Positions 1 through 19,605 of a stretch of 64,000 nt of DNA are shown here, in pieces (position 1 is the stretch's first letter; every line of letters starts with the position of its first letter). This DNA is from an uncultured delta proteobacterium. Lineage in GTDB: Bacteria; Desulfobacterota; Binatia; UBA9968. The notes under the pieces were generated by a model. That model searched no databases and was not told where the DNA came from. It saw only the letters and a program-made list of their open reading frames with translations. The stretch spans positions 320,001 to 384,000 of the forward strand of contig CAWDPO010000017.1 in the NCBI GenBank assembly GCA_963804165.1. Direction: 5' to 3'. The translations under genes were made by a program, and so were the position numbers.

Positions 1-321
1 GTAGACCTGGTTTGCGGCAACCAGTGAGGCGGCGCCGGCGACATTCTGAATGATGATGTTGGGATTCCCGGGAATGTATTTCGGCAGAAACTCCGCGAGC
101 AAGCGCGGGTAGAGGTCGTAAACGTCTCCAGGCTTTGTGCCGACGATGAAGGAAATCGTTTTGCCTTGGTAGAAATTCGCTTGCGCGAATGCCAGTTCAA
201 GGTTCAAAGGGTTCAAAAGTTCAACGCCGGAAAGGATCAACAGTCCGAGAACTTTGAACGCTTGAACCGTTGAACTTTTGAACCGGGAGTGGAGGGAGAC
301 GACTGAGCCATAATTCACCAT
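1..321 (-). CDS. tctC: TctC/Bug-family tripartite tricarboxylate transporter substrate-binding protein (5' part; runs off the window)
   Basis: Not in the ORF track. Manual translation from ATG 321 (GGAGG upstream): MVNYGSVVSLHSRFKSSTVQAFKVLGLLILSGVELLNPLNLELAFAQANFYQGKTISFIVGTKPGDVYDLYPRLLAEFLPKYIPGNPNIIIQNVAGAASLVAANQVY. Confidence 0.9.
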   Translation of the reverse strand, partial: MVNYGSVVSLHSRFKSSTVQAFKVLGLLILSGVELLNPLNLELAFAQANFYQGKTISFIVGTKPGDVYDLYPRLLAEFLPKYIPGNPNIIIQNVAGAASLVAANQVY

Positions 322-378
322 ACACCTCCCGTTTTTGACAATCTGCTCGTCGAGCGTGATCGCGGTTTTGGGGCGGAA

Positions 379-1458
379 TTAATTCCCGAGCACCCACTTC
401 ATCCGTTCGATCACTTCCTTCGGTTGAACGATGACCTCTTGCGCGAGGGATTCTAGTTCGGCACCGGTAAGCGGATCCACATCCCAACCGCGCTTCGCAG
501 TTTCAGCGAGGAGTTCGGGATCTTTTAGCGTCTTTGAATAGGCCTCGCGGAGAATTTTGGTTTGCTCGGCCGACAAACGCGGCGGAGCGGTGATCGGCCG
601 GCCTAGGGTCGCCGCGGTCAAGATCACTTTGGCAAGTCGTTTGCCGCTATCCGGAGTTTTGTATTGCTGCATCAGCTCATTGAGCGTGGGTACATCCTTC
701 AAACGCTCGTCGCGCTTCGCGCCCGATTGCACGACAGGGCGAATGAAACCCGATTTGTGCCAGCGCTTGTAGGGCTCGCGGCCGAAGTAGGTCGCGATCA
801 ACGGCGACCAGCAGACTACTTCGTTGCGCTCCACAGCCAAGTCGATTTCCGAGCCGCCTTGATAGCCGCTGACGACGGTCGTCTTGACCCCCAACGTGTC
901 GTCCAGGAGCCGCGGAAAATAAAGACCGCTGTTGCCGGTTCCCGTGTTGCCGCATTTCGGCGGTTCCTTGGCATTGCGCAAATCTTCGATGGTTTTGAAA
1001 GGCGAATCGGCGCGAATGAAATGCACGATGTCATTCTTTTCCGGTGAGCCGATCCATGTGAACTTTCCCCAATCGAACTTCACTTCCGGACGCGCGACCA
1101 GTTGGTCGAAGTAAAGCGCCGGGTTGAAGGAACCGAGAGTCAGTCCATCGGGTTTGGCGACGCCGTAGATGTAGTTTGCAGCGACGGCACCGCCCGCCCC
1201 CGGCATATTCTGCACGACTACCGTCGGATTGCCGGGAATATGTTTGCCGATATGCTGCGCCATCAGGCGCGCCCACAAATCGTACCCGCCGCCCGCCGCG
1301 GTACCGACAATCACCCTAACGGTTTTGCCTTGGTAGACATTCGCTTGCGCGAATGCCGGTTCAAGGTTCAAAGGGTTCAAAAGTTCAAAGGCCAGAGCGA
1401 ATACGAATCCGAGAACCTTGAACGGTTGAACCTTTGAACTTTTGAACGGCCTTGGCAT
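379..1458 (-). CDS. tctC: TctC/Bug-family substrate-binding protein
   Basis: YQGKT..GGGYD..AR..IPGNP..VQNMPGAGG, KPDGLT, GYQGG..AVERNEV and DVPT motifs. Confidence 0.92.
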   Translation of the reverse strand: MPRPFKSSKVQPFKVLGFVFALAFELLNPLNLEPAFAQANVYQGKTVRVIVGTAAGGGYDLWARLMAQHIGKHIPGNPTVVVQNMPGAGGAVAANYIYGVAKPDGLTLGSFNPALYFDQLVARPEVKFDWGKFTWIGSPEKNDIVHFIRADSPFKTIEDLRNAKEPPKCGNTGTGNSGLYFPRLLDDTLGVKTTVVSGYQGGSEIDLAVERNEVVCWSPLIATYFGREPYKRWHKSGFIRPVVQSGAKRDERLKDVPTLNELMQQYKTPDSGKRLAKVILTAATLGRPITAPPRLSAEQTKILREAYSKTLKDPELLAETAKRGWDVDPLTGAELESLAQEVIVQPKEVIERMKWVLGN

Positions 1459-1461
1459 TTA

Positions 1462-2547
1462 TCATTCCCGCCCGAGCACCCACTTCATACGCTCGATGAT
1501 TTCTTTGGGCTGGGTCATGACCTCTTTCGACAGGGCTTGCAGTTCTTCGCCTTTGGTTGGATTGACTTCCCATCCCTGTTTGGCCGCGTCAGCGAGCAAT
1601 TCCGGGTCGGCGATGGCTTTGGCATAGGCGTCGCGGAGAATTTTGACGCGGTCAGCGGGTGTGCCCGGCGGAGCGCCGATTGGCCGGCCGAGGGTGGCGG
1701 CCGTCAGAATCACTTTTGCGAGACGCTGGCCCGCCTCGGCAGTCTTGTATTGCTGCATGAGCTCGTTAAGCGTTGGAGTGTCCTTCAGACGCGCATCGCG
1801 CTTGGCGCCGGTTTGTATCAGGACGCGTACATAGCCGGACTTATGCCAGCGTCTGTAGGGCTCGCGGCCAAAATAAGTCGCGAGCAGAGGCGACCAGCAG
1901 TAGACTTCGCCGCGCTCGATGGCCAATTCGATATCGGGGGCGCCGGGGTAGCCGCTGACGATTTGAGTTTTGATGCCGAGAGTTTCTTCGAGCAGCCGGG
2001 GAATATAGTGGCCGGTGGAGCCGGTGCCGGTGCTGCCGCATTTGGCCGGCTCCTTGGCGTTGCGCAGATCTTCGACGGTTTTGAAAGGCGTGTCGGCGCG
2101 CATGTAGTAGACGACGTCGTTTTTTTCCGGCGATCCGATCCAGTTAAATTTGGCCCAATCGAATTTCACTTCGGATCTGCCGACAAGTTGGTCGAAATAA
2201 AGTGCGGGGTTGACGGCACCGAGGGTCAAACCGTCGGGTTTGGCGACGCTATAGACATAGTTGGCGCCAATGATGTTGCCGGCGCCAGGCATGTTCTGCA
2301 CCACAATCGACGGGTTTCCTGGGATATGTTTGACGATGTGACGCGCCGTGAGCCGCGCCCAGAGATCGTAGCCGCCGCCTGTGGTCGAAGCGACGACCAT
2401 CGTGATGGTTTTGCCTTGGTAGAAGGGCGTCTGGGCAGACGCCCGTTCAACGTTCAAGGGGTTCAAAAGTTCAAGGGCCAGAACGGAGAAGAGTCCGAGA
2501 ACCTTGAACCCTTGAACTTTTGAACTCTTGAACTGAGTTTTCATCAT
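1462..2547 (-). CDS. tctC: TctC/Bug-family substrate-binding protein
   Basis: Same TctC motifs; close paralogue of 379..1458. Confidence 0.92.
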   Translation of the reverse strand: MMKTQFKSSKVQGFKVLGLFSVLALELLNPLNVERASAQTPFYQGKTITMVVASTTGGGYDLWARLTARHIVKHIPGNPSIVVQNMPGAGNIIGANYVYSVAKPDGLTLGAVNPALYFDQLVGRSEVKFDWAKFNWIGSPEKNDVVYYMRADTPFKTVEDLRNAKEPAKCGSTGTGSTGHYIPRLLEETLGIKTQIVSGYPGAPDIELAIERGEVYCWSPLLATYFGREPYRRWHKSGYVRVLIQTGAKRDARLKDTPTLNELMQQYKTAEAGQRLAKVILTAATLGRPIGAPPGTPADRVKILRDAYAKAIADPELLADAAKQGWEVNPTKGEELQALSKEVMTQPKEIIERMKWVLGRE

Positions 2548-3627
2548 TCAATTCCCCAGCACCCACTTCATCCGTTCGATGACTTCTTTCGGCTGGACCA
2601 TGACTTCCTTCGATAACTGCTCCATTTCTTCGCCACTGAGGGGTTCGATATCCCAACGTTGTCTTTTCGTTTCAGCGACGAGGTCAGGGTCTTTCAGAGT
2701 TTTGAGATAGGCTTCTCGGAGCAGTTTGAGCCGGTCAGGTGGAATGCCCGGAGTTGCGGCGATCGGGCGCCCAAGTGTGGCCGCGATCAAGATGACCCGC
2801 GTGAGGCGCTTACCGGCTTCCGGAGTCTTATATTGATCCATGAGCTCGTAGATCGTCGGCACGTCGGCTAAACGCGCATCGCGTTTACGGTTGGTCTGGA
2901 GCAGCACGCGGATAAAACCTTTTTTTTGCCAGGAAATGTAAGGCTCCCGCCCGAAGAAAGTAGCGACCAACGGTGACCAGCAATGGACCTCGCCGCGCTC
3001 GACGGCCAGGTCGACTTCCGAACCGCCAGCGTAACCGCTGACGATGGTATGTTTCGTGCCCAAAACTTCGTCGAGTAAGCGTGGAATGTAAAATCCGGTT
3101 GTGCCGGTTCCAGAACTGCCGCAGCGCGGCGGCTCTTTGGCCTTGCGGATATCGTCGATGCTTCGATAGGGCAAATCGGCACGCATGTAATGGATGATGT
3201 CGTTCTGTTCCGGCGATCCGATCCAGCCGATCTTGGCGAAATCGAATTTAACTTCCGGCCGGCCGACCAATTGATCGAAATAAATCGCCGGGAGGAGCGC
3301 GCCGAGAGTGAGCCCGTCCGGTTTAGCGACGTTGTAAAGATAATTAGTAGCGACGATGGACGCGGCGCCGGGCATGTTTTGCACCTGGATCGTCGGATTC
3401 CCGGGAATGTATTTGCCGTAGTAGCGGGCCAAGACCCGCGCCCAGAGATCGTAACCGCCGCCGGTGGACGAGCCGATAACGATTCGAATGGTCTTGCCTT
3501 GGTAGAAGGGCGTCTGGGCAGACGCACGTTCAAGGTTCAAGGGGTTCAAAAGTTCAAAGGTCAGAACGGAGACGAGTCCGAAAACCTTGAACGCTTGAAC
3601 CTTTGAACCTTTGAACGCCATTACCAT
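2548..3627 (-). CDS. tctC: TctC/Bug-family substrate-binding protein
   Basis: Same TctC motifs; C-terminus QPKEVIERMKWVLGN shared with neighbours. Confidence 0.92.
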   Translation of the reverse strand: MVMAFKGSKVQAFKVFGLVSVLTFELLNPLNLERASAQTPFYQGKTIRIVIGSSTGGGYDLWARVLARYYGKYIPGNPTIQVQNMPGAASIVATNYLYNVAKPDGLTLGALLPAIYFDQLVGRPEVKFDFAKIGWIGSPEQNDIIHYMRADLPYRSIDDIRKAKEPPRCGSSGTGTTGFYIPRLLDEVLGTKHTIVSGYAGGSEVDLAVERGEVHCWSPLVATFFGREPYISWQKKGFIRVLLQTNRKRDARLADVPTIYELMDQYKTPEAGKRLTRVILIAATLGRPIAATPGIPPDRLKLLREAYLKTLKDPDLVAETKRQRWDIEPLSGEEMEQLSKEVMVQPKEVIERMKWVLGN

Positions 3628-3655
3628 TTACTAGTTCGTCTGCAGCGGTACGCTG

Positions 3656-4687
3656 TTACATGCCGATCAGTTTCTTCACGCGTTCGACGACGTCGGGAGG
3701 AGCGGTCATGACTTCCTTCGCTAAAGCATCGAGCTCCTCACCCGTGGCCGGATCGATGTCGAGGCGGCGTTTTTCCGCTTCCGCTAAAAGAGCGGGATCG
3801 TTGATCGTCTTGTTGAAAGCGTCACGGATGATTTTGACCCGGTCGGCCGGTACTCCGGGAGGGAATACCAGCGGGCGGCCGAACTCATCCGCTGCGACGA
3901 CGACTTTCGTCAAGCGCCGGACGTTTTCCGGGGTCTTGTACTTGTCCATCAATTCATTGAACAGCGGCACGTCCTTGAGCCGTGGATCGCGCTTGCTTCC
4001 GGTCTGATAGAGCACGCGCACGAAATTTTTCTTGCGCCAGGTGATGAACGGCTCGCGGGCGAAGTAGGCGTTGATCGTAAAGGCCCGGCACTGAACTTCG
4101 CCGCGCTCGACGGCGAGGTCGATATCCGACCCGGCGACATAACCTGAGACAATTTCGAACTTGGTGCCAATGGCATCTTCCAAGAGTTTCGGCATGTAAT
4201 AGGCGGACGATGTTACGCCCGTTGCACCGCACTTTGGCGGCGTCGATGCGCTGCGAACATCTTCAATGGTTTTGTAAGGCGTATCGGCGCGCATATACAT
4301 GTGACTGTTGGAGCTCACGGTGCTGCCGATCCAGATGAACTTGCTCCAGTCGAATTTGGCTTCGGGGCGTTTGGCGAGCTGCTCGAAGTAAAGCGCGGGG
4401 TAGATCGCGCCCAAGGTTAGCCCGTCAGGTTTGGCGATATTGTAAACCTGATTGGTGCCGATCAACCCCGCCGCGCCGGCGACGTTTTGAATGATGATGT
4501 TTGGATTGCCGGGAATATGTTTCGGCATAAACTCCGCCACCAGACGAGGGTAGAGATCGTAAACGTCACCCGGCTTGGCGGCCGCTATGATCGTGATCGT
4601 CTTGCCTTGATAAAAGGGTGTCTGCGCCGACACATTCGGGGCCCACACGAACGACAACAACAAAAATGTGATGATTCTTCGATTCAT
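3656..4687 (-). CDS. tctC: TctC/Bug-family substrate-binding protein
   Basis: Conventional signal peptide (MNRRIITFLLLSFVWAPNVSA-Q) plus TctC motifs; RBS AAGGAG. Confidence 0.92.
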   Translation of the reverse strand: MNRRIITFLLLSFVWAPNVSAQTPFYQGKTITIIAAAKPGDVYDLYPRLVAEFMPKHIPGNPNIIIQNVAGAAGLIGTNQVYNIAKPDGLTLGAIYPALYFEQLAKRPEAKFDWSKFIWIGSTVSSNSHMYMRADTPYKTIEDVRSASTPPKCGATGVTSSAYYMPKLLEDAIGTKFEIVSGYVAGSDIDLAVERGEVQCRAFTINAYFAREPFITWRKKNFVRVLYQTGSKRDPRLKDVPLFNELMDKYKTPENVRRLTKVVVAADEFGRPLVFPPGVPADRVKIIRDAFNKTINDPALLAEAEKRRLDIDPATGEELDALAKEVMTAPPDVVERVKKLIGM

Positions 4688-4713
4688 AGGCTCTCCTTGT
4701 GAGAATACTCGAG

Positions 4714-5742
4714 TTACGTCCCCAATAGTTTTTTCATTCGTTCCACGACGTCCGGCGGTTGCGCTATGATTTCTTTTCCCAAAGCTTCCAGTTCTTCGCC
4801 GGAAACCGGATCCAATTCCAGCTTTTTCTTTTTGGCATCCTCAAGGAGCTCCGGATCGTTGACCGTCTTCATGAAGGCATCACGGAGAATCTTCACCCGG
4901 TCCGCCGGAATGCCGGGCGTGGCGACGATGGGACGACCGATTTCGTTGGCGGCTAGTATCACCGCCGCCAAGCGCTTCCCTGAATCGGGAGTTTTGTGTT
5001 GGTCCATGAGCTCGGGAAGTGTTGGAACGTCGGGCAAGAGAGCGTCCCGCTTTTTGCCGGTTTGAATGATGACCCGCACAAATCCTTTTTTGCGCCAGGT
5101 ATGAAAAGGCTCGCGGGCGAAAAAAGCGGCGATGGTGAATGCGCGGCATTGCACTTCGCCGCGCTCGACCGCAAGATCGACATCCGTGCCGGAGTTGTAA
5201 CCGGTGACGACGTTGAACTTCGCGCCGATCGTTTCCTCTAGGAGTTTGGGCAGGTAGTACGCCGACGATGCGGTGCCTTCGGCGCCGCACTTGGGCGGGA
5301 CGGAGGCTTTACGAATGTCTTCGATGGTTTTGTACGGTGTATCGCTGCGCATGTAGAGCAGATGATGCGATACGGTTGTGTTGCCGATCCAGGTAAACTT
5401 TTGCCAATCGAACTTGACCTCTTTTCGGCCGACCAGTTGATCGAAGTAGAGCGCAGGTTGGATCGAGCCGATGGTGAGGCCGTCTGGTTTGGCGACCTCG
5501 TAGATGTAGTTGGCCGCAACCATTGAGGCAACGCCGGGCATGTTTTGTACGATGATGTTGGGCGCACCAGGAATATGTTTGGGGATGAACTGGGCAACCA
5601 TGCGCGCGTAGAGATCGTACACGCTGCCGGCCGGCGTGCCCGCTACCAGCCGGATGGTTTTGCCCTGATAGAAGGGCGCTTGGGCTTGAACGAAAATAGG
5701 CGAGAGAACGACGAGGAGTAATGCTGAGATGCTTGGAAGCAT
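4714..5742 (-). CDS. tctC: TctC/Bug-family substrate-binding protein
   Basis: Start reassigned to ATG 5742 (MLPSISALLLVVLSPIFVQA-Q, GAGG upstream); TctC motifs. Confidence 0.9.
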   Translation of the reverse strand: MLPSISALLLVVLSPIFVQAQAPFYQGKTIRLVAGTPAGSVYDLYARMVAQFIPKHIPGAPNIIVQNMPGVASMVAANYIYEVAKPDGLTIGSIQPALYFDQLVGRKEVKFDWQKFTWIGNTTVSHHLLYMRSDTPYKTIEDIRKASVPPKCGAEGTASSAYYLPKLLEETIGAKFNVVTGYNSGTDVDLAVERGEVQCRAFTIAAFFAREPFHTWRKKGFVRVIIQTGKKRDALLPDVPTLPELMDQHKTPDSGKRLAAVILAANEIGRPIVATPGIPADRVKILRDAFMKTVNDPELLEDAKKKKLELDPVSGEELEALGKEIIAQPPDVVERMKKLLGT

Positions 5743-5955
5743 GAATGCCTCTTTATTTGGAACGCTACAGTTCCGGATAATCGGTTTGAATTGCGAATCT
5801 AAAAGGTCCAGCTGATTCCGTCGATAGAGTTCGTCAGTAGTTTTCCCGAAGCAATTCCGTTCGTCCCTTCGAGAAGACCTCAGCACGAATGGAGAAGATC
5901 AAAAAAGGATTGATCACTTTTCCATTCGTGTCGAGTGTCTCGCGGCATCAATTCG

Positions 5956-6981
5956 TCAGTCACCCAACAGCTTGCGCATGCGCGCGACAACGTCGGGCGG
6001 CGTAGCCATGACGTCTTTGGCCAAGGAGGCCATCTCATCCCACTGGGTCGGATCGATTTCGAGCCGGCGTTTTTCTGCCTCCGCCAAGAAGGCTCCTTCG
6101 GTGACTGTCTTGTCGAACGCATCGCGCAAAATCTTCACCCGGTCCAGCGGCACGCCCGGAGCAAAAACCAGCGGACGTCCGAAGTCGCCTGAAGCGAGAA
6201 TGACTTTGGCGAGGCTGCGTCCGGCATCACCGACTTTGTACCTGTCCATCGCCTCGTAAATTGTCGGAGATTCCTTAAGACGCGGATCGCGCTTGGTGCC
6301 GGTTTGGATGAGAACGTTGACAAAATTTTTCTTGCGCCAGGAAATGAAAGGCTCGCGGGCGTGGTACGCGGTAATCGTGAACGCGCGGCATTGCAACTCA
6401 CCGCGCTCGACGGCCAGATCGATATCCTGGCCCGACACGTAGCCCGACACGATATCGAACTTGGTGCCGAGGACTTCCTCCATGAGCTTCGGCATGTAGT
6501 ATCCGGTGGAGGCGACGCCGGTGGCGCCGCACTTGGGCGCGGTGTTGGCCTTGCGCACGTCGTCGACGGATTTGTAGGGCGTGTCGGCGCGCATATACAA
6601 GAGATGATTCGATTTGACCGGGCTACCGATCCAGAGAAACTTGCCCCAGTCGTATTTCGCTTCCGGTTTTTTGATCAATTGATCGAAATAAAGCGCCGGA
6701 TAAATCGCGCCGATCGTCAAGCCGTCCGGTTTCGTGACATTGTAGACGTGGTTGGCGGCGATCAACGAAGCAGCCCCGGGCATATTTTGCACGATGATGT
6801 TGGGATTGCCCGGTATGTGCTTGGTCATGTACTCCGCAAGCAGCCGCGGATAGAGATCGTAGACATCGCCGGCTTTGGTGCCGACGACGATGCTGATGGT
6901 CTTGCCCTGATAGAAGGGCGTCTGCGCCAGTAGAGCCGAGCTCCACCCGAGAGTGAGCACGAGGACGAGAATCAGAATCAT
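5956..6981 (-). CDS. tctC: TctC/Bug-family substrate-binding protein
   Basis: Start reassigned to ATG 6981 (AAGGAG RBS; MILILVLVLTLGWSSALLA-Q); TctC motifs. Confidence 0.9.
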   Translation of the reverse strand: MILILVLVLTLGWSSALLAQTPFYQGKTISIVVGTKAGDVYDLYPRLLAEYMTKHIPGNPNIIVQNMPGAASLIAANHVYNVTKPDGLTIGAIYPALYFDQLIKKPEAKYDWGKFLWIGSPVKSNHLLYMRADTPYKSVDDVRKANTAPKCGATGVASTGYYMPKLMEEVLGTKFDIVSGYVSGQDIDLAVERGELQCRAFTITAYHAREPFISWRKKNFVNVLIQTGTKRDPRLKESPTIYEAMDRYKVGDAGRSLAKVILASGDFGRPLVFAPGVPLDRVKILRDAFDKTVTEGAFLAEAEKRRLEIDPTQWDEMASLAKDVMATPPDVVARMRKLLGD

Positions 6982-7067
6982 AGTGTTTCTCCTTCCCGCC
7001 GGAATTTGGGCCGAAGCATATCCCTCAAGGCTGCTTGTGCGCAACCTTGAGGGGTGCCGACTGGTTG

Positions 7068-8102
7068 CTATTTTCCGCTCAACAATTTCTCCATACGCTG
7101 CACGACGTCCGGGGTTGACGCCATGACTTCTTTCGACAACGCCTCGATCTCCGCGCCGCTCGCCGGATCCATTTCGAGCCGGCGCTTTTCGGCGGTTGCC
7201 AAAAGCGCAGGATCGCTGACTGACTTGTCGAAGGCGTCGCGCAAAATCTTCATGCGGTCCGCAGGCACGCCTGGAGGGGTGACCAGAGGACGACCAAATT
7301 CGCCGGCAGACAAAACGACTTTCGCTAGGCTCCTTCCGGCGGCGCTGGTTTTGTATTTGTCCATCAACTCATAAATCGTCGGCGCGTCCTTGAGGCGCGC
7401 GTCGCGCTTGGCGCCGCTCTGCATCAGCGTGTTGACGAAACCGCGCTTGCGCCACGAGATGAAGGGTTCGCGGGCAAAATAAGCAGTGATCGTAAAGGCG
7501 CGGCAAACTACCTCGCCGCGCTCGACGGCGAGGTCGACGTCCTGGCCGGATTGATAACCTAAAACGATATCGAACTTCGTGCCGAGAGTTTCTTCCATGA
7601 GCTTCGGCAGATAGTAGCCGGTCGAAGTGATGCCGTTGGAGCCGCATTTCGGCGCTGCCGACGCATTCTTAATGTCGTCCATCGACTTATAAGGTGCATC
7701 CGAGCGCATGTACAAAAGATGATTCGACGTCACCGGGTTGCCGACCCAACCGAATTTCGGCCAATCGAACTTAACCTCGGGTTTTTTCGTGAGCTGCTCG
7801 AAATAGAGCGCCGGGTAAATCGCGCCGATCGTCAGGCCATCCGGCTTGGCGACAGTGTAAACTTGATTGGCCGCGATCATCGACGCGGCGCCGGGCACAT
7901 TCTGGATGATGATGTTCGGATTTCCGGGTATGTACTTCGGCATGAACTCGGCGAGCATGCGGGGATACAGGTCGTAAGCGTCGCCGGCCTTGGTGCCGAC
8001 GATAATCGTAATCGTTTTTCCTTGATAGAACGGGGTCTGGGCGTCGACATGACTGATCCCAAACAACGTCGTTAATAATAGGGCAACGAGCAAACGTAGC
8101 AT
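7068..8102 (-). CDS. tctC: TctC/Bug-family substrate-binding protein
   Basis: Signal peptide plus TctC motifs; GAGGAGG RBS. Confidence 0.92.
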   Translation of the reverse strand: MLRLLVALLLTTLFGISHVDAQTPFYQGKTITIIVGTKAGDAYDLYPRMLAEFMPKYIPGNPNIIIQNVPGAASMIAANQVYTVAKPDGLTIGAIYPALYFEQLTKKPEVKFDWPKFGWVGNPVTSNHLLYMRSDAPYKSMDDIKNASAAPKCGSNGITSTGYYLPKLMEETLGTKFDIVLGYQSGQDVDLAVERGEVVCRAFTITAYFAREPFISWRKRGFVNTLMQSGAKRDARLKDAPTIYELMDKYKTSAAGRSLAKVVLSAGEFGRPLVTPPGVPADRMKILRDAFDKSVSDPALLATAEKRRLEMDPASGAEIEALSKEVMASTPDVVQRMEKLLSGK

Positions 8103-8168
8103 TTAGTTCCTAACCTCCTCGGATAATTTTTTCCGCACGAACCTTACCATTTAAAAAGCTACTTTCAA

Positions 8169-9203
8169 CTAATTGCTGAGGATTTTTTTAACCCGGGCCA
8201 GGACATCCGGGGGCTGTTGCAAAATCTGCTGAGCAAGCTTTTCCAAACTCGCGCCGCTGGTCGGATCGACGTCCATTTTCTGTTTTTGCGTCTCGGCGAG
8301 CAGCTCAGGATCTTTCATGGCCTGATCGAACGCCTGACGCAGCATATTGACCCGGTCAGCCGGAATACCCGGCGTGCCAATGATCGGCCGTCCAAAGGAC
8401 TCGGCGGCGAGAATGACCTGGGCAACGCGGCGGCTGCTTTCCGGCACTTTTTCTTTCTCGAAGATCTCCGCGATCGTCGGCACGTCCGGGATTCTTTCGT
8501 CGCGTTTGGCACCGGTATAGAGGAGAACACGCACGAAGTTCTTCTTTTGCCAACTCAAGAACGGCTCGCGTCCAAAGTACGGCGACGCGGTCATGCCTCT
8601 GCACATGACTTCACCTTTTTCGACGGCGATGTCGATCTCGGATCCGCCCGGATAGCCGAGAACGGTGTTGATTTTCAAAGGCGGCAACGTGTCTTCAAGC
8701 ATGCGCGCGAGGATGAAATCGGTGCTCACGGTGCCGGTGGAGCCGCATTTGGGCGGCTCTTTGGCATTTTTGATATCGGCGATGGATTTGTACGGGCTAT
8801 CGGCGCGCATATAAAGAATCATCGGCTCACTCACCGGAGAGCCGATCCAGGCAAACTTGCGCAGGTCGAATTTCACTTCCGCACGGCCGACGATCTGGTC
8901 GAGATAAAGTCCACTGCTGGGAAAACCGATGGTCAGGCCGTCGGGCTTGGCCACGCTGTAGACGTAATTGGCCGCAACCACCGAGCCCGCGCCCGGCATA
9001 TTCTGCACGATGAAAGTGGGGTTACCCGGAATATATTTCGGCATGTAGCGCGCGAGCAGGCGCGCCCAGCGATCGTAAAAACCGCCGGTGGTAAAACCGA
9101 CGACCACTCGGATCTGCTTCTCTTGATAAAATGGCGTGGCTTGGGCGTGAAGCTGCGAAACCCAGGCAAAGACTAGACTTAGCGCTAAAATTGCAACTGT
9201 CAT
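8169..9203 (-). CDS. tctC: TctC/Bug-family substrate-binding protein
   Basis: Start reassigned to ATG 9203 (GGAG RBS; MTVAILALSLVFAWVSQLHA-Q); TctC motifs. Confidence 0.9.
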   Translation of the reverse strand: MTVAILALSLVFAWVSQLHAQATPFYQEKQIRVVVGFTTGGFYDRWARLLARYMPKYIPGNPTFIVQNMPGAGSVVAANYVYSVAKPDGLTIGFPSSGLYLDQIVGRAEVKFDLRKFAWIGSPVSEPMILYMRADSPYKSIADIKNAKEPPKCGSTGTVSTDFILARMLEDTLPPLKINTVLGYPGGSEIDIAVEKGEVMCRGMTASPYFGREPFLSWQKKNFVRVLLYTGAKRDERIPDVPTIAEIFEKEKVPESSRRVAQVILAAESFGRPIIGTPGIPADRVNMLRQAFDQAMKDPELLAETQKQKMDVDPTSGASLEKLAQQILQQPPDVLARVKKILSN

Positions 9204-9261
9204 GTGTCTCCCTTTTGTTCGCACCACCTTCGGATCGCGGTGCCGAGGATTTTGCACGTGC

Positions 9262-10350
9262 TTATTCAAGAAGTTTTTTGACGCGTTTGAGGACGGCCGG
9301 GGGTTGATTCATAACTCTTTTCGCCAATGCCTGCAGCTGTTCGCCGGTGACCAGCTCGATGTCCATGCGCGCTTTCTTGGCCTCGGCCAAAAGCTCGAGA
9401 TTATTCATAGCTTTGACGTAGGCCTCGCGGAGTATATTCACCCGGTCCGCCGGCGTGCCCGGCGCCACGATCATGGGCCGGCCGAAGTCGCCGCCGCGCA
9501 AAATGACATCAGCGACCCGACGGCTCTCATCCGCAGTATTTTCCTTATCAAAAATCTCGTAAATCGTCGGCACCTCTCCGACGCGCGCATCGCGCTTCTC
9601 CGAGGTTTGCAGGATATGTTGATCGAAACCTTTCTTGTGCCAGGTATCGAAAGGCTCGCGGCCGAAGTGGGGGGCAATGGTCATGCCGCGGCACTGAACT
9701 TCGCCCTTTTCCACGGCGATATCGATTTCACTGCCGCCGGCGTATCCCAAGATCGTGTTGATCTTGATGCCCAGCGTGTCCTCGAGCACTCGCGCGATCA
9801 AGTAGTCGGCGCCGGCCGTACCGGTGGCGCCGCACTTGGGCGGCTCGGGCAGTTTCCTCATGTCCTGGACGGATTTGAACGGAGCATCGGCGCGCGCGTA
9901 GAGGATGATATCGCTTTTCTCCGGCGAGCCGATGAAGTAGCCCTTGGTGATATCGAAGCGGACTTCTTTGCGCCCGGCGATTTGATCGAGATAGACGCCG
10001 TAGTTGGGCATGACGAGGGTAAGTCCGTCGGGTTTGGCGACGCCGAAAACATGGTTCATCGCGATCATCGATCCCGCGCCCGCCATGTTCTGGACGATGA
10101 AGTTAGGATTTCCCGGAATGTAAAGAGGCATAAAGCGGCCGAGCAGGCGCGCCCAGCGATCATAAAAGCCGCCCGGAGTGAGACCGACGATGATGCGGAG
10201 GGTCTTGCCTTGGTAAAAATTCGCCTGCGCGAATGTTTGTTCAACGTTGAAAGGGTTCAAGAGTTCAAGGACAGAGAAGACTAAGACTCCGAACACCTTG
10301 AACATTTGAACTTTTGAATCTTTGAATCGATTTTTCGAGAAATTGTTCAT
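9262..10350 (-). CDS. tctC: TctC/Bug-family substrate-binding protein
   Basis: TctC motifs; repeat-encoded leader; GAGGT RBS. Confidence 0.92.
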   Translation of the reverse strand: MNNFSKNRFKDSKVQMFKVFGVLVFSVLELLNPFNVEQTFAQANFYQGKTLRIIVGLTPGGFYDRWARLLGRFMPLYIPGNPNFIVQNMAGAGSMIAMNHVFGVAKPDGLTLVMPNYGVYLDQIAGRKEVRFDITKGYFIGSPEKSDIILYARADAPFKSVQDMRKLPEPPKCGATGTAGADYLIARVLEDTLGIKINTILGYAGGSEIDIAVEKGEVQCRGMTIAPHFGREPFDTWHKKGFDQHILQTSEKRDARVGEVPTIYEIFDKENTADESRRVADVILRGGDFGRPMIVAPGTPADRVNILREAYVKAMNNLELLAEAKKARMDIELVTGEQLQALAKRVMNQPPAVLKRVKKLLE

Positions 10351-10358
10351 AACTTACC

Positions 10359-11450
10359 TCACTCCACCAAGACTTTTTTCACCCGCTCGACGACATCGCG
10401 CGGCTGATTCATCAGCTCTTTCATTAACCCTTGGAGTTCTTCGCCCGGGGTATGTTCCATGTCCATTTGACCCTTTTTTGCTTCTTCAATCAGGCCCGGG
10501 TCGCGCATCGCCTTGGCGTAGGCATCGCGCAACAACTTGACTCGATCCGGTGGGTTTCCGGGTCCGGCGACCATCGGCCGGCCAAATTCCCCGCTCGCCA
10601 TAATAATCCGCGCCACGCCGCGCATCACTTCGGGAGATTTGTATTGATCCATCAGCTCGAACAGCGTCGGCGCATCGCCCATGCGCGGATCACGCTTGGG
10701 TCCGCCTTGAAGAATATGGCGGTCGAAGCCTTTCTTGTGCCAACTGTCGAACGGCTCCCGGCCAAAATGCGGCGGGATGTCCATGCCGCGGCAAATGATC
10801 TCGCCGCGCTCGACGGCGACATCGATTTCAGAGCCGCCTTGATATCCGCTCACGGTGTTGAGTTTCGCCTTGAAAGCCTCGTCCATGATTTTGGCGAGCA
10901 AGTAACCGGTGCTCGCGGTGCCCGTCGAGCCGCACTTCGGCGGTTCTTTCGCTTGAATAATATCGCTGACGTTCTTGAACGGACTATCGGCGCGAAAATA
11001 AAGCATGGTCGGCGCTTTTTCCTGGGTGCCGATAAATTCAAATTTGCGCATGTCGAACTTGACTTCCCTGCGCCCGACGATTTGATCTAAATAGAGACTG
11101 TTGATCGGCACGAGCAGCGTCAGCCCATCTGCCTTAGCCAGATTGTAGACGTAGTTGGCGGCGATCACCGAGCTGGCGCCGGGCATATTTTGCACGACGA
11201 AATTGGGATTGCCGGGAATGTGTTTCGGCATGTAGCGCGACAGCAAGCGCGCCCAACGGTCGTAAAAGCCGCCGGGGGTGAAGCCGACGATGATGCGAAC
11301 GGTCTTGCCTTGGTAAAAATTCGCTTGCGCGAATGTTTGTTCAACGTTCAAAGGGTTCAAGAGTTCAAGGACAGAGAAAATTAGGACTCCGACAACCTTG
11401 AACGTTTGAACTTTTGAACCTTTGAACCGATTTTTCGAGAGATTGTTCAT
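10359..11450 (-). CDS. tctC: TctC/Bug-family substrate-binding protein
   Basis: TctC motifs; repeat-encoded leader; GAGGT RBS. Confidence 0.92.
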   Translation of the reverse strand: MNNLSKNRFKGSKVQTFKVVGVLIFSVLELLNPLNVEQTFAQANFYQGKTVRIIVGFTPGGFYDRWARLLSRYMPKHIPGNPNFVVQNMPGASSVIAANYVYNLAKADGLTLLVPINSLYLDQIVGRREVKFDMRKFEFIGTQEKAPTMLYFRADSPFKNVSDIIQAKEPPKCGSTGTASTGYLLAKIMDEAFKAKLNTVSGYQGGSEIDVAVERGEIICRGMDIPPHFGREPFDSWHKKGFDRHILQGGPKRDPRMGDAPTLFELMDQYKSPEVMRGVARIIMASGEFGRPMVAGPGNPPDRVKLLRDAYAKAMRDPGLIEEAKKGQMDMEHTPGEELQGLMKELMNQPRDVVERVKKVLVE

Positions 11451-11458
11451 GACTTACC

Positions 11459-12526
11459 TCAGTCGGCAAGAATTTTTTTGACGAGATCGACGACCTCGCG
11501 CGGCTGGTTCAAAAGCCCTTTCATCTGCGCTTGGAGCTCTTCGCCGGGGGTGTGGACCAGGTCCATCTGGCCTTTTTTCGCCTCGTCGATCAAGCCTGGG
11601 TCGCGCATCGCTTTCCCGTAGGCATCGCGCAGCGCTTTGATTCGATCCGGCGGCACTCCCGGCCCAGCCATCATCGGACGGCCAAACTCGCCGCTGGCTA
11701 GCACGATACGGGTAAGATCGCGCATGACCGCGGGTGATTTGTACTGGTCCAATAATTCGAAAAGCGTTGGGACCTCCGCCAGGCGCGGATCACGCTTCGG
11801 TCCGCCTTGGAAAATATGCCGGTCAAAGCCTTTTTTATGCCAGCCGTCGAAGGGCTCGCGGCCAAAGTGCGGCGGCACATCCATCTCGCGGCATACCAGT
11901 TCGCCGCGCTCGACGGCGAGGTCGATCTCGCTGCCGCCCGGGTATCCGGTCACGCTGATGGTCTTTGCATTGAATGCCTCGATCAAAAGCTTCGAGACGA
12001 TATACGCGGTACTCGCGGTGCCCGTGGAACCGCATTTCGGCGGCTCTTTCGCCTGAATGATATCGCCGAGAGACTTGATCGGACTGTCGGCGCGAAAATA
12101 CATCATGGTCGGCGTCTTTTCCTGACTGCCGATATACTCAAACTTGCGCATGTCGTACTTCACTTCGCGCCGGCCGACGATCTGATCGAGGTGCAAGCTG
12201 TTGATGGGCATGAGCAGCGTCAGGCCGTCACTCTTGGCGACGTTGTAAACGTAGTTGGTGGCAACGACCGAGCTCGCGCCGGGCATGTTCTGGACGACGA
12301 AACTGGGATTGCCCGGAACATATTGCGGAATGTAACGGGAAAGCAGCCGAGCCCAGCGATCGTAAAAGCCGCCGGGCGTGGTGCCGACGATGATACGCAC
12401 CGTCTTGCCGCTGTAAAACGGCTCGACCTGAGCATGACCGCTTCGGCTAAGGCTGAGCGCGATTACTACGCAAGCGACTGCGAATCCGAGAGAGCCGCTT
12501 AACCTTGCGAGGTTTCGTGCCTTCAT
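11459..12526 (-). CDS. tctC: TctC/Bug-family substrate-binding protein
   Basis: Start reassigned to ATG 12526 (AAGGAGG RBS; MKARNLARL...SGHA-Q); TctC motifs. Confidence 0.9.
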   Translation of the reverse strand: MKARNLARLSGSLGFAVACVVIALSLSRSGHAQVEPFYSGKTVRIIVGTTPGGFYDRWARLLSRYIPQYVPGNPSFVVQNMPGASSVVATNYVYNVAKSDGLTLLMPINSLHLDQIVGRREVKYDMRKFEYIGSQEKTPTMMYFRADSPIKSLGDIIQAKEPPKCGSTGTASTAYIVSKLLIEAFNAKTISVTGYPGGSEIDLAVERGELVCREMDVPPHFGREPFDGWHKKGFDRHIFQGGPKRDPRLAEVPTLFELLDQYKSPAVMRDLTRIVLASGEFGRPMMAGPGVPPDRIKALRDAYGKAMRDPGLIDEAKKGQMDLVHTPGEELQAQMKGLLNQPREVVDLVKKILAD

Positions 12527-12659
12527 CGCAGGCCCCTCCTTGAGACCGATTGTCAGACTACGGGTTCGACAGTCTAGATCCTTTCCCGCAGACGAATGGG
12601 CGATTCGGCCGAGATACTGGGCAGTGGCTAATTTTTGCGGTGGGCCGAAAGGAAACGAA

Positions 12660-13160
12660 CTATGCGCCCAAACCAAGCCACGTAATGATCAATCCTTCCG
12701 GGAACGGTAGGGTCAGCAACTTGACAAATAGACCATAAAAAAAGAGCCACGCGATGACGGTCAGCGTGATCGATAAGACCCACGGCTCGCCGCCCTGGAA
12801 CCTGAAGTAGGCGAACATCATTAGTGGGATTGCGATGGGAAAGCCCAACAGCCAAATCGAAAAAAAGAAACCTAACAGCCATGAAAACATGATGATTGCT
12901 CTTTTCTTGGCGGTTACCGGGTCAACGTCCTTGGTAAACTGAAAATCCATCGGAGTTGGAGGAGCTCCGTCGTCCGACTGTTTGGCCTTGACGCCTTTCA
13001 AGTCCAGGATGACTTGAATCCCTGCGAAAATCACCATCGGAATACCGATGACCCAGGGATAGAGTCGCGCCTGGGGACGCCATTCGTAAGCCATATAAAC
13101 AAACACGCAAAAAAATATGAAAGCACAAAAGCTAAATATAGCCGCGGGTCTGATCTTCAA
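12660..13160 (-). CDS. tctB: TctB-family small membrane subunit of tripartite tricarboxylate transporter
   Basis: About 165 aa with 4-5 TM segments, ARLYP..IG, LLGF and FVKLLTLPFPEG ends; probable TTG start after AAGGAG; heads the tctC array. Confidence 0.85.
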   Translation of the reverse strand: MKIRPAAIFSFCAFIFFCVFVYMAYEWRPQARLYPWVIGIPMVIFAGIQVILDLKGVKAKQSDDGAPPTPMDFQFTKDVDPVTAKKRAIIMFSWLLGFFFSIWLLGFPIAIPLMMFAYFRFQGGEPWVLSITLTVIAWLFFYGLFVKLLTLPFPEGLIITWLGLGA

Positions 13161-17600: not shown

Positions 17601-18594
17601 CAAGTTCGCTAGTTGTGGCGACCGTCATTGCATTCTTGCGTGAGCTGTTTGATCGGCTTCAAACGCCTTCGCCCAAGCCAAACCTCTCCGCGAGATTAAG
17701 GTTGGCTACCCATTGGGCGGTTCGTCCAGTTATTTCTGGGTTGCGTACCGCTCGGGTTCATTCGAAAAGCACGGCTTGAAGCTCGAACCGATTTACATCA
17801 GGGGCGGGCTTATGGGAATCCAAGCGGCTCTTTCCGGCGACCTGCCTTTGCAGTTGCAAGGGGCGTCTACGGTGGTGGCCGCGTGGGCGCAGGGCGCCAA
17901 GGAGTTTCAATTTATCGGCGCAGTCGGCAATCGGCTGGACTACATTCTGGCGGCGCATCCTTCGATCAAGAGACCCGAGGATCTCAAGGGGAAGCGAATC
18001 GGAGTCAGCCAACTCGGTTCGAGCACGGATTTCATCGCCCGGGTGGCCGTTCGACGGCTTGGGCTCAATCCCGAGAAGGACGTGCAGATCGTCGGCATTG
18101 GCGGCCAGGGAGACCGTTGGACCGCACTCACGGCCGGACAGGTTCAAGCCAGCGTGTTTCAATCTCCGTTCACCTTAAAGGCGCGCAAAGCGGGTTACCC
18201 TACGTTTATCGATTTTTCCAAGGAGGATTTCGAGTACACGGTTGCTGGACCGGTGACTATGCGCTCCTTCATCCGGACCGACAGAGACACTGTCATGAAC
18301 TTCATGCGCGGGTTGGCCGACGGCATGGATTTCTATCGCGACGAGAAAAATAAAGACCGCGTGCTGAAATTTCTAGGTGAATATTACCGTTCCAACAACA
18401 CCGAAGAATTGGATGAAACCCGCCGGACTTACACTCAGGTGACACCGGGATTGCCCTTGATTTCAGTCAAAGCACTGGAGAACGTGATCGCCAACGATAA
18501 GAATCTCAGCGGGATGAAATTGAATGCCAGTGAGTTGTTGGACTTATCTTTCCTTGAACAGTTGGCGCAGGAAAGAAAGGCGAAGGGACGCTAA
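17534..18594 (+). CDS. ABC transporter substrate-binding protein, NMT1/THI5/SsuA-like (one frameshift near 17640)
   Basis: Leader in one frame joins SNAFAQAKPLREIKVGYPLGGSS in the other; DLKGKRIGVSQLGSSTDF and GLNPEKDVQIV motifs. Confidence 0.82.
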
Positions 18595-18810
18595 TAAATT
18601 AACTCGGTCAAACCGTTCAAAAAGTTCAAGCCGTTCAAATCGTTCACCCCTCACCTTCCTTTCGACGCGGCCGGACCTTTCTCTCCCCCGCGACGCGGGG
18701 GAGATTCAAAGAGAGGGCTTGAACCCTTCGCAGCTCTCAGGGCAGGCTCCGCGAAGCGATTGAACAGCTTGAACGTCTGGAACTTAGGGGCCAAGAAAGA
18801 GGTAGGAGCA

Positions 18811-19605
18811 ATGGATTACCAGACAATTCTGTTCGACGTGCGTGATCAGATCGCTTTTGTCACCTTCAACCGGCCGGAGTCGATGAACGCCGTGAACCGG
18901 CAGATGGCAAAGGATCTGGTCGAAGCGTGCCGGCAGATCGAAGACGACAGCGCGATTCGCATCGCGATTTTTACCGGCGCAGGCGAAAAAGCTTTTTCCG
19001 CCGGCATGGATCTGAAAGAGCGATCGGAAACGGCGTCCTCGCCGATCGAGCGGCGCGCGCAGAAACTGTCGGCGACGATCCATACCCAGAGTCGCGCTGT
19101 GGCGGCGATCACCAAACCGACGATCGCCTCGATCCGCGGTTACTGTGTCGGCGGCGGGTTGGAATTCGCCCTGGCATGCGACATGCGCGTCGCCGCCGAA
19201 GACGCCAAGTTGGGACTTGCCGAGGTAAAGCGCGGCTTGATTCCCGGAGCCGGGGGCACGCAAAGATTGTCGCGCACGGTGGGCGTAGCGAAAGCGTTGG
19301 AGATTTGCCTCACCGGCGACAACGTCAGCGGCAGCGAAGCGCTGCGTTTGGGATTGGCTAACATCGTCGTGCCGGCCAACGACGTCATGAAAGCAGCGGA
19401 GGATTTGGCCAACCGCATTCTCAAGGGCGCGCCGATGTCGGTGCTGTTCATTAAAGAAGCGATCAAAAAAGGTATCGAGCTGTCGCTGGACGAGGGCTTT
19501 CGCCTTGAGTCCGATCTATCGGCGTTGATTGGCACCACGGAAGACAGCAAGGAAGGACCGCGCGCCTTCGCGGAAAAACGCGCGCCGGTGTGGAAGGGGA
19601 AGTAA
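18811..19605 (+). CDS. enoyl-CoA hydratase/isomerase
   Basis: FNRPESMNAVN, AFSAGMDL, GGGLEFALACD, LAEVKRGLIPGAGGTQRL; AGGAG RBS. Confidence 0.93.
   Translation: MDYQTILFDVRDQIAFVTFNRPESMNAVNRQMAKDLVEACRQIEDDSAIRIAIFTGAGEKAFSAGMDLKERSETASSPIERRAQKLSATIHTQSRAVAAITKPTIASIRGYCVGGGLEFALACDMRVAAEDAKLGLAEVKRGLIPGAGGTQRLSRTVGVAKALEICLTGDNVSGSEALRLGLANIVVPANDVMKAAEDLANRILKGAPMSVLFIKEAIKKGIELSLDEGFRLESDLSALIGTTEDSKEGPRAFAEKRAPVWKGK

Follow-up and report, generated by a model that had tools for sequence, protein, structure and literature searches.

Adjacent genes for nutrient-binding proteins of an uncultured soil bacterium have a translated, hairpin-forming repeat at their 5' end, which raises the question of whether one short sequence could both encode a targeting peptide and act as an element at the nucleic-acid level. 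The original prediction, made for the window (the whole stretch of 64,000 nucleotides analysed here), held that a selfish palindromic repeat had been domesticated as a portable signal-peptide cassette of TctC paralogues.

Element copies in the window

Each of six tctC genes has an in-frame 89-bp unit at its 5' end, as had been noticed, and all six units are inside minus-strand open reading frames (ORFs). Five (195-283, 1359-1447, 2445-2533, 3528-3616, and 11339-11427) have four exact GTTCAA or TTGAAC hexamers per arm, and on the plus strand the first-arm linkers are 1, 3, and 2 nt, the spacer is 29 nt, and the second-arm linkers are 2, 2, and 2 nt. The copy at 10239-10327 is degenerate and retains three plus two exact hexamers. 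In the window, GTTCAA occurs 112 times (shuffle mean 35.7) and GTTCAANNGTTCAA occurs 29 times, against none in 100 shuffles. The 15-gene tctC array holds nine element leaders, six in the window and three just upstream (contig C17, 316878, 317994, and 319103, the first with a decayed arm), and nine is also the total with this leader among the approximately 108 TctC paralogues of the genome.

The gene at 1-321 (minus strand, as all the tctC genes of the array described here), whose 3' part is cut by the window edge, has the leader MVNYGSVVSLHSRFKSSTVQAFKVLGLLILSGVELLNPLNLELAFA|QANFYQGKT, which contains copy 1 (195-283; 4 x GTTCAA, 29-nt spacer, 4 x TTGAAC; hairpin of -45.7 kcal/mol when 141 nt are folded). 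It is followed by genes at 379-1458 (359 aa; Pfam TctC, 53 bits), 1462-2547 (361 aa; stop 3 nt from the ATG of the next gene), and 2548-3627 (359 aa; Pfam TctC match), with copies 2 (1359-1447, -50.5 kcal/mol), 3 (2445-2533, -57.6 kcal/mol), and 4 (3528-3616, -58.1 kcal/mol). Five tandem paralogues with ordinary leaders occupy 3656-9269 (ORFs 3656-4687, 4714-5886, 5956-7044, 7068-8102, and 8169-9269); the real starts of some of them sit further in. The gene at 9262-10350, also a Pfam TctC match, has a partly decayed element leader with the weak hairpin of copy 5 (10239-10327; -32.1 kcal/mol, z -1.5), and the gene at 10359-11450 contains copy 6 (11339-11427; -43.2 kcal/mol). The mature domain of the latter is sister to that of its closest relative, the ordinary-leader gene at 11459-12676, which probably starts at MKARNLARL. 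The Pfam scan, which took five of the six element-bearing genes (the first being cut by the window edge) and two ordinary paralogues, gave TctC (PF03401) scores of 44-72 bits at a cut-off of 27. As predicted, the eight other tctC genes of the window have ordinary leaders, six in the array and two at ~22425-23528 and 35186-36154.

The same element also occurs outside tctC, at positions that largely agree with those listed originally. Free intergenic copies are found at 20550-20653, with a 47-nt spacer and 4 nt past the stop of the ORF at 19715-20545, and at 33311-33416, where hexamer matching shows a partly decayed second arm. Single arms on the plus strand were found by hexamer matches at 27238-27266 (four hexamers) and 40686-40718 (a subfamily with a 9-nt period); another, placed at 44994 by the original prediction, is present, but its three exact hexamers span 45001-45020.

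Translation of the element and probable export of its product

The reading frame was analysed in 66 element copies from 14 genomes, picked by the in-frame peptide motif. An in-frame start lies between the upstream stop and the first arm in 60 of the 66, being ATG in 56, and a Shine-Dalgarno-like 4-mer is present within 20 nt upstream of the start in 50 of these 60. The remaining six, several of them from frameshift-ridden assemblies, lack any ATG, GTG, or TTG ahead of the element. The frame is open across the element in 66/66 aligned copies, a figure to be read in light of the motif used to pick them, and the visible length differences are multiples of three: spacers of 29, 32, and 23 nt, as deduced from the peptides, and one 9-nt arm deletion. 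The expected frame and length constraint, absent from intergenic copies, was recovered in coding ones. Moreover, the mature N-terminus, Q(A/T)xFYQGKT, begins 4-5 residues past the element, as in ordinary paralogues, and therefore there is no room for an alternative start. Orthologous tctC genes have dN/dS values of ~0.03-0.09, indicating strong purifying selection on the mature domains, and the leader-bearing genes are evidently functional.

A purely untranslated element, with the start inside or after it and the hairpin acting as 5' UTR or intercistronic RNA, might be suggested by the in-frame TTG codons of the second arm, by the six copies devoid of an upstream start, and by arms elsewhere that, by eye, sit near gene 5' ends upstream of the recognisable N-terminus. 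Nevertheless, with initiation in or past the element, at most ~10 residues would precede the mature Q, leaving a periplasmic binding protein with no signal peptide, and the open frame, the length differences in multiples of three, and the composition of the spacer described below also stand against it, so that this reading seems very improbable. The upstream starts in 60/66 copies likewise speak against a true start downstream of the element, which had been named beforehand as one of the outcomes that would refute the idea. Translation of the element as a leader is well supported by these sequence comparisons.

On translation, the peptide FK(S/G/D)S(K/T)VQxFKV - spacer - ELLNP(L/F)N(L/V)E proved to be correctly quoted, and the predicted mapping was confirmed, with a Lys-rich n-region from one arm, an h-region from the spacer, and the residues leading up to an A-x-A|Q site from the other arm. 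In 65 of 66 copies, the net charge of the n-region is between +1 and +6. The 10-residue stretch ahead of the second arm has a median Kyte-Doolittle hydrophobicity of 2.78 and is uncharged in 61/66; in the nine leaders of this genome the value is 2.39-3.05, close to the median of 2.74 for 95 ordinary TctC leaders, on a genome-wide background in which 22% of all N-termini score at least 2.5, whereas intergenic spacers do not exceed 1.51 in any frame. The element is followed by tails such as RASA, PAAA, and RAFA and then by the conserved Q. The typical c-region of substrates of Sec and signal peptidase I is 3-7 residues long, and positions -3 and -1 are occupied by small residues; here, 13 residues, including two Glu, separate the h-region from the A-x-A site, which is longer than typical.

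This atypical acidic stretch could point to an uncleaved membrane anchor or to a poor, tolerated signal. However, these proteins share the A-x-A|Q site and the mature N-terminus with ordinary paralogues, the mature domains are under strong purifying selection, and, where the first arm has decayed, it has been replaced by ordinary basic and hydrophobic sequence instead of being lost (L021_10714 and L021_9669), so that an anchor or poor signal appears improbable. Since the translated parts map to an n-region, an h-region, and an A-x-A|Q site, export of the leader-bearing TctC proteins by Sec, with cleavage like that of their paralogues, is most likely.

Nucleotide-level constraint, parent repeat, and spread of the leader

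The hexamers are constrained beyond the peptide that they encode. Non-modal synonymous codons amount to 10/437 in the hexamers, compared with 56/119 in the linkers and, for the neighbouring FYQGKT codons within those genes, 122/370; TTG is used in 63/65 and CTT in 55/55 cases in the hexamers, but in only 21% and 9% in mature domains, and the dS of tctC orthologues is 1.0-1.9. The hexamers are, on this codon evidence, under nucleotide-level purifying selection across species, beyond protein need, and a single stretch of 89 bases thus appears to have two functions.

Regarding the second function, the strong mRNA hairpin foreseen just after the start codon is borne out by folding in five of the six copies (minimum free energy -43 to -58 kcal/mol, z -2.9 to -6.0), beginning 7-12 nt past the AUG. 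So near the AUG, a hairpin should impede initiation. The hairpin arms showed no compensatory changes, and the correlation between arms is only rho 0.47, among non-independent copies. Where the first arm is down to two or fewer exact hexamers, the second still has 3-4 in 13/13 copies, a pattern that would fit an arm acting alone as well as a hairpin. In the window, Rfam gave no match at the gathering score, and the below-threshold matches on the elements were chance-level hits to miRNAs and sRNAs. Metatranscriptome contigs are short and mostly 90-95% alike, and transcript ends are not readable from them.

The parent family comprises 233 arms at 197 loci in the genome, its members being hairpins with arms of tandem hexamers or heptamers just past stop codons, and the derivation of the leader element from this free intergenic family is supported. 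With a rough gene model, under which 83% of the genome counts as coding, 138 of the 197 loci are intergenic, only 13 in divergent gaps, and 124 of the 137 intergenic loci with genes on both sides are downstream of at least one gene end. Single arms have GTTCAA in the sense orientation in 35 cases vs. 14, at a median of 18 nt past the upstream stop, and 156 of the 233 arms, about two thirds, have a partner chain below three and, hence, no recognisable partner. Linker patterns 1,1,1 and 1,1 (period 7) account for 41 arms; most others have mixed 7/8 periods, and coding copies have periods of 7-9 nt. One orthologous intergenic site has retained its arms around spacers that do not align, and sister species have a different heptamer word there.

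These features bear on another explanation, in which the leader is likewise translated, and the hexamers of each arm stay frozen as a binding array for a trans-acting RNA- or DNA-binding protein, the stem being unselected. On that view, the tctC leaders would belong to a regulon spanning ~200 loci across the genome. The frequency of partnerless arms, their strand bias relative to transcription, the intact second arms beside decayed first arms, and the retention of arms around an unalignable spacer would all agree with such an array, and, in the available text of PMC4679880, heptamer direct repeats are proposed as sites bound by post-transcriptional regulators. Nevertheless, no candidate binder was identified, the different heptamer word of the sister species at the same site fits a structural role better, and paired copies fold far better than shuffles; on balance, this array seems rather unlikely.

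As to its distribution, the leader was found exclusively in TctC among 5.8 billion database proteins (48/48 near-length and 17/17 short matches), which gave no long matches to it. In this genome, no other gene family clearly has the element downstream of the start, and the coding variant (linkers 1,3,2; spacer 29 or 32 nt) is absent outside tctC. An ambiguous case of an element downstream of a start is located at C30 43339. The coding copies are one distinct variant and not repeated insertions of the free element. The "portable cassette" is thus only partly borne out: portability across families is not supported (65/65 database proteins are TctC), but the leader does move among TctC paralogues. 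The leader requires at least 4-5 changes on mature-domain trees, its monophyly on the TctC tree is rejected (delta lnL 425, AU p = 0.0002), and leader subtypes differ between orthologues, e.g., G000_5202 and L017_4076. Since the leader is polyphyletic and its subtypes differ between orthologues, it moves among paralogues by recombination. In addition, leader-bearing orthologue groups are common to species with a tctC dS of at least 1, and thus the copies are old.

Polyphyly, together with the high copy number and palindromic form of the family and the 18 Y1_Tnp (PF01797) matches in the genome, could be accounted for by a mobile selfish element, similar to MITE or REP, inserted repeatedly and independently into tctC and conserved merely through youth. 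Against this, the copies are old, they share one variant that is absent outside tctC in the genome, no non-TctC protein with the leader was found, and 2/18 Y1 transposase genes are within 1 kb of an arm. No target-site duplications were obvious in the inspected flanks either, so that the "selfish" mobility originally assumed is not supported; a currently mobile insertion is largely refuted by the age of the copies, the tctC-only variant, and the lack of Y1 association, and the whole explanation is highly unlikely. Mobilisation as a REP or REPIN by RAYT was also discarded, since none of the 18 PF01797 genes is visibly flanked on both sides by arms. Integron attC sites (GTTRRRY/RYYYAAC, in cassette arrays) were rejected as well, because GTTCAA has C at position 4 and the element copies are found in conserved metabolic gene neighbourhoods.

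Proposed explanation and comparison with known systems

The reading that probably accounts for the data is a joint one, in which the leader is translated and exported by Sec, its hexamers are kept as nucleic acid, and it has spread by homologous recombination. The parent would be a hairpin repeat with tandem GTTCAA arms, normally located from a few to ~20 nt past a stop codon. One such hairpin, between two cistrons of the tandem tctC array, may have been absorbed into the downstream gene, with a start codon just upstream and the whole 89 nt read in frame. The GUUCAA arm would cross all three codon phases and give F-K, S-K, and V-Q, i.e., a basic n-region, the spacer would have been reshaped into a 10-residue hydrophobic h-region, and the UUGAAC arm, whose linkers of 2, 3, and 1 nt avoid the one phase reading UGA, would give ELLNPLN(L/V)E, running into the A-x-A|Q signal-peptidase site. 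The boundary stem-loop between cistrons presumably keeps the RNA role of the free copies, and could protect or process the 3' end of the upstream cistron or make downstream initiation dependent on ribosomes coming from upstream. The leader would then have spread within the array via homologous recombination and not by transposition. Nucleotide-level selection on the hexamers and leader exchange among paralogues are new beyond the initial sequence-only reading.

If the joint reading is true, the leaders would be a clear example from nature of a short sequence constrained twice at once, in its role as targeting peptide and in its role as an element at the nucleic-acid level, and would show how non-coding repeat DNA can become a working protein part. 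Synonymous recoding separates the peptide and nucleic-acid roles, which makes the tctC leaders a concrete test system that bears on what abundant gene-boundary hairpins do. For annotation, the lesson is that periplasmic proteins in genomes of this kind may be given leaders that look long and odd but are probably real.

A broader and more tentative possibility is that tandem-heptamer hairpins are a general, undescribed class of bacterial boundary elements, some of them with a PF05635 four-helix-bundle gene, whose arms are read by a trans-acting factor or RNase III. If so, the cleavable signal peptide would be the one protein site open to overprinting, with the same letters encoding both the export signal and RNA control, the cell could thereby set the output of each tctC paralogue, and the elements would supply the homology that shuffles leaders among paralogues. 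In this genome, two of five PF05635 gene matches are enclosed by 4 x GTTCAA ... 4 x TTGAAC, and, of 27 PF05635 loci inspected within the genus, 20 are flanked by inverted arrays of 16 nt or more, made of various short words. The tctC elements resemble the two GTTCAA-enclosed cassettes of this genome ("23S rRNA intervening sequence protein") in their arms, but the leader copies and most free copies have no gene between them.

The literature search found no paper describing a hairpin repeat that doubles as a signal peptide, nor any joining a Rickettsia palindromic element (RPE) with one. RPEs, which Ogata et al. reportedly described in 2000, are said to occur both between genes and in frame inside functional genes, and the analogy originally drawn with them applies here in that a palindromic repeat lies in frame in functional ORFs. 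RPEs occur inside many unrelated proteins, at varying positions, and, to our knowledge, have no assigned peptide function, whereas the tctC element is one variant at one position of one family, with a defined targeting peptide and with repeat words under nucleotide-level selection. Its host, to judge from the source names of homologues, is a Binatia-type soil MAG, and RPEs belong to Rickettsiales. REP/BIME elements with RAYT transposases are short, palindromic, high-copy post-stop elements that form mRNA hairpins. The parent family is similar in consisting of high-copy intergenic palindromes downstream of genes, but each of its arms consists of tandem hexamers, in place of one imperfect palindrome headed by GTAG, and no association with Y1 transposase genes was found.

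The cyanobacterial STRR are the same kind of repeat as the tandem heptamers, and the parent family likewise has three or more head-to-tail 7-nt units at many loci, at gene boundaries. TAACTGA heptamer direct repeats occur in marine Beggiatoaceae, cyanobacteria, and Bacteroidetes (PMC4679880), and (TTCAAAA)3 and other repeats occur in Nostoc PCC 7120 (bioRxiv 10.1101/2022.06.06.494920). Judging from the available text of both sources, these repeats and the parent family share 2-6 tandem 7-nt units, high copy number, positions adjoining gene starts or ends, occasional overlap with the ORF periphery, and a suspected post-transcriptional role. However, in the text available, those arrays are mostly direct and upstream of start codons, whereas here inverted pairs past stops are common, and a signal-peptide role is not described for them there. 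Finally, the opa genes of Neisseria have CTCTT pentamer repeats in the leader-peptide coding sequence, which act as a slipped-strand on/off switch because copy number shifts the frame (PMC3745409, in the text available). As in opa, short tandem DNA repeats are translated within a signal or leader peptide; nevertheless, compared with what that text describes, the tctC units are fixed at four per arm and spaced at 7-9 nt so that the frame is kept, and their arrays are inverted, hairpin-forming, and stable across species.

A translated repeat at the 5' end of tctC genes

Positions 1-12676 of the window hold 12 tandem genes of the TctC/Bug solute-binding family, all on the minus strand, and six of them carry at their 5' end an 89-bp palindromic unit, at exactly the coordinates of the original prediction (195-283, 1359-1447, 2445-2533, 3528-3616, 10239-10327, and 11339-11427). 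On the plus strand, the unit reads GTTCAA-N-GTTCAA-NNN-GTTCAA-NN-GTTCAA, a 29-nt spacer, and TTGAAC-NN-TTGAAC-NN-TTGAAC-NN-TTGAAC, with three hexamers gone from the copy at 10239-10327. Double hexamers are far above chance, numbering 29 in the window versus 0 in shuffles. Upstream of the window, the array goes on with three more leader-bearing genes and, in the genome that holds it (G000; 7.5 Mb, 46 contigs, 55.8% G+C), the element is found in 9 of about 108 TctC paralogues (110 tblastn matches of at least 200 aa), all nine within one 15-gene array. Many of the paralogues stand in tandem, on the contig of the window, C17, and on contigs C35 and C10. Homologous TctC proteins carry the source names 'Candidatus Binatia' or 'Deltaproteobacteria bacterium' (MAGs).

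The proposal that a selfish repeat has been domesticated as a portable Sec signal-peptide cassette is supported in part, since the translated leader stands, whereas portability across protein families does not. Among 66 leader copies drawn from 14 species of the genus, G000 included, 60 have an in-frame start (56 ATG) past the upstream stop and ahead of the first arm, preceded by an SD-like word in 50 of these, and some of the six start-less copies come from visibly frameshifted assemblies. Peptide comparison finds the frame intact in the visible length variants, namely the 'FKV' type with its 29-nt spacer, the 'FNRI' type with one additional codon, one copy shorter by two codons, and another shorter by a 9-nt unit. 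The ten residues ahead of the second arm bear no charge in 61/66 copies and have a hydropathy of 2.78, versus 2.74 in the h-regions of 95 ordinary TctC leaders; intergenic spacers reach at most 1.51 in any frame. Moreover, the 14 residues preceding this hydrophobic stretch are net positive in 65/66 copies, and the element is followed by R/P/Q-A/V/T-S/F/A-A and then by the conserved Q of the mature protein. The 13-residue acidic stretch before the predicted cleavage site (ELLNPLNLExxxA) is atypical. The second-arm linkers, 2, 3, and 1 in sense, place each UUGAAC in one of two UGA-free phases, and this coding variant occurs within G000 in the tctC array only. Two leader copies, L021_10714 and L021_9669, have lost the first arm and show an ordinary basic and hydrophobic sequence instead. 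No signal peptide would remain if translation began within the element or past it. These features lead to the conclusion that the element is translated and, judged from its sequence, very probably serves as a Sec-type signal.

A second constraint on the hexamers

Orthologous tctC genes differ by a dS of 1.0-1.9 with a dN/dS of about 0.03-0.09, so that their silent sites are saturated and the genes are under selection. Within the hexamers of the second arm, silent positions are almost invariant. Non-modal synonymous codons amount to 1/63 at E1 (modal GAA), 2/65 at L3 (TTG), 1/62 at N4 (AAC), 3/65 at L6 (TTG), 3/63 at N7 (AAC), 0/55 at L8 (CTT), and 0/64 at E9 (GAA), that is, 10/437 over the seven hexamer codons; they amount to 26/58 and 30/61 at the two codons whose third base falls in a linker, and to 122/370 at the FYQGKT codons a few residues downstream in the same genes. 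In the mature domains, only 21% of Leu codons are TTG and 9% are CTT. This codon pattern rules out peptide selection or codon preference as the cause of the hexamer invariance, and gene conversion within a genome is also ruled out, because the linkers vary between copies of one genome, whereas the hexamers do not. On the comparison of these copies, purifying selection acts on the hexamers at the nucleic-acid level. The double constraint on one 89-nt stretch and the exchange of leaders among paralogues are the most solid of the new findings.

Leader exchange and the parent element

A protein search seeded with 40 leader residues retrieved 48 near-length matches, of which 46 have a Pfam TctC domain and the other two are frameshifted TctC by sequence, as well as 17 shorter proteins, each an N-terminal piece of TctC (14 identified by reading the sequence and 3 by Pfam domain or TctC name); no longer protein matched this seed. 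The leader is found on TctC only, and the cassette is portable not across families but among TctC paralogues. Of the 30 other species in the genus, 15 have its coding-type arm, as do 2 of 59 genomes from the family's other genera and none of 16 genomes sampled from the order's other families; G005, which is unpublished, enters these tallies as a single genome with no match. The matches lie about 1.1 kb apart, the spacing expected of tctC arrays.

On a tree of 101 mature domains from G000, eight leader-bearing rows included, the leader changes at least four times; a second tree, which takes 51 array genes across four species, requires at least five changes. The log-likelihood drops by 425 units when the leader-bearing rows are forced together (AU p = 0.0002). 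The leader-bearing gene 10359..11450 and the gene 11459..12676, with an ordinary leader, form a sister pair. As far as these trees tell, the leader moves within the TctC family. Moreover, orthologues across species differ in leader subtype along with the first mature residues, which points to recombination tracts that span the leader. In another tctC array, near 211704 of contig C35, an in-frame peptide, MKTQFKSSQPFKAFQAF, precedes an ordinary leader; this peptide is similar to the first 17 leader residues of gene 1462..2547 in the window and could be a remnant of such exchange.

A census of the whole G000 genome, requiring at least three exact hexamers per arm, gave 233 arms at 197 loci. A crude longest-ORF gene model, in which 83% of the genome counts as coding, places 138 of these loci between genes. 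Of the 137 intergenic loci with genes on both sides, 124 follow the end of one or both neighbours, and only 13 are in divergent gaps. An inverted partner is present for 77 of the 233 arms (about one third), at spacers of 8-94 nt. Where a single arm stands in a co-directional gap, GTTCAA is in sense in 35 cases versus 14, and the median distance past the upstream stop is 18 nt. Short-linker arms with a period of 7-8 (141 arms) and arms with a 9-nt period (76 arms) form two subfamilies; of 121 genomes sampled from the phylum, 22 have the period-7 array, with a reversed control pattern nearly missing. The site of the free copy 20550-20653, after a stop codon, was compared with its orthologues (loci L031-L041): GTTCAA arms are kept in six species with unalignable spacers, and three others (G186, G021, and G019) have (ATTTTGG)n/(CCAAAAT)n hairpin arms there, an inner GTCGGA...TCCGAC-like stem being common to both types. 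Genes matching PF05635 ('23S rRNA intervening-sequence protein'), which encode a four-helix bundle, are enclosed by 4 x GTTCAA ... 4 x TTGAAC in two of five cases in G000 (19045-19584 and 21689-22220 of contig C34), and a third is surrounded by AGGCTTG-type arrays (55934-56248 of contig C45), all outside the window; across the genus, inverted arrays of assorted short words flank 20 of the 27 PF05635 loci examined, a count that omits one locus of G005. Given the genome-wide arms, the ATTTTGG-armed counterparts, and the arrays flanking PF05635, the element is a member of a class, the tandem-heptamer-armed hairpins at gene boundaries. Rfam gave no match at gathering score, the sub-threshold ones being due to chance.

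Y1/RAYT as a mobilising system is rejected on present evidence, with 2 of 18 PF01797 matches within 1 kb of an arm. At 249420-249672 of contig C2, a gap of 9 nt separates a GTTCAA arm and a truncated Y1_Tnp (PF01797) match (25.9 bits, profile positions 7-77), and this Y1-like ORF is apparently broken at the arm. A further pair of the 9-nt period, missing from the original prediction, lies in the window between ORFs 17713..18594 and 18760..19605, with 3 x GTTCAA at 18615-18638 and 2 x TTGAAC at 18760-18774. Arms are densest at 8-33 kb of contig C12 and at 114-152 kb of contig C34, with 19 and 15 loci per 100 kb, respectively, versus 2-5 elsewhere; GTTCCA-type 9-mer arrays are interspersed among them there, as is a recurring motif, GGGAACTTCCACGTTTCGGGAATTCTCGAAACGTCGAAA. 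At 43339-43437 of contig C30, a complete palindrome of the 9-nt period separates an ATG from an ABC-transporter ATPase gene (MVQNVQAVQDVQIVGELPGGLHALNELNVLNDLNKAKPLVEIQGVSKSF...) without breaking the frame and is either an N-terminal extension or a 5' UTR. That free copies cannot be translated is no general rule, since all three frames are closed in just 32 of 63 paired free elements, read from the GTTCAA arm to its partner.

The predicted hairpin and related systems

The element had also been expected to form an mRNA hairpin just past the start codon, and the computed fold agrees, with a stem that begins 7-12 nt after the AUG. In 141-nt windows, five copies are predicted to fold into a four-helix interrupted stem (MFE -43 to -58 kcal/mol, z -2.9 to -6.0), and the decayed copy gives a weak fold. 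The stop of the upstream cistron lies 0-28 nt before the AUG, and the stem is placed like the free copies relative to that stop. The preferred reading is an intercistronic hairpin, an RNA element that would protect or process the 3' end of the upstream cistron and would tie initiation on the downstream cistron to ribosomes coming from upstream. Each arm may instead act as a binding array, in line with the majority of genomic arms being single, with the second arm being intact in 13/13 copies whose first arm has decayed, and with the inner stem of six orthologous intergenic copies, which by eye showed no compensatory pairs. The dependence between the arms (Spearman rho 0.47 over 66 non-independent copies) is too weak to separate a hairpin from a lone arm. 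Part of window positions 1-6000 is contained in 20 sequencing runs, none of which contains half its words, and contigs of two soil or rhizosphere metatranscriptomes map to the array, a few at full identity and most at 90-95%; these contigs, 151-285 nt long, show no transcript ends, may originate from relatives or DNA carry-over, and were set aside as evidence.

No repeat-encoded, hairpin-forming signal peptide is described in the literature searched, a search thin on subscription journals and without supplements. Rickettsia palindromic elements (RPE) are palindromic repeats that lie in frame within genes and are the closest analogy in that respect. The parent arrays are closest to the heptamer direct repeats of Beggiatoaceae, cyanobacteria, and Bacteroidetes, which sometimes overlap ORF peripheries and for which the parts of the two sources consulted describe no signal peptide (PMC4679880; bioRxiv 10.1101/2022.06.06.494920). 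For a translated tandem repeat in a leader peptide, the closest analogy is the CTCTT repeat of the Neisseria opa genes; this repeat is a frame-shifting switch and no stable dual code (PMC3745409).
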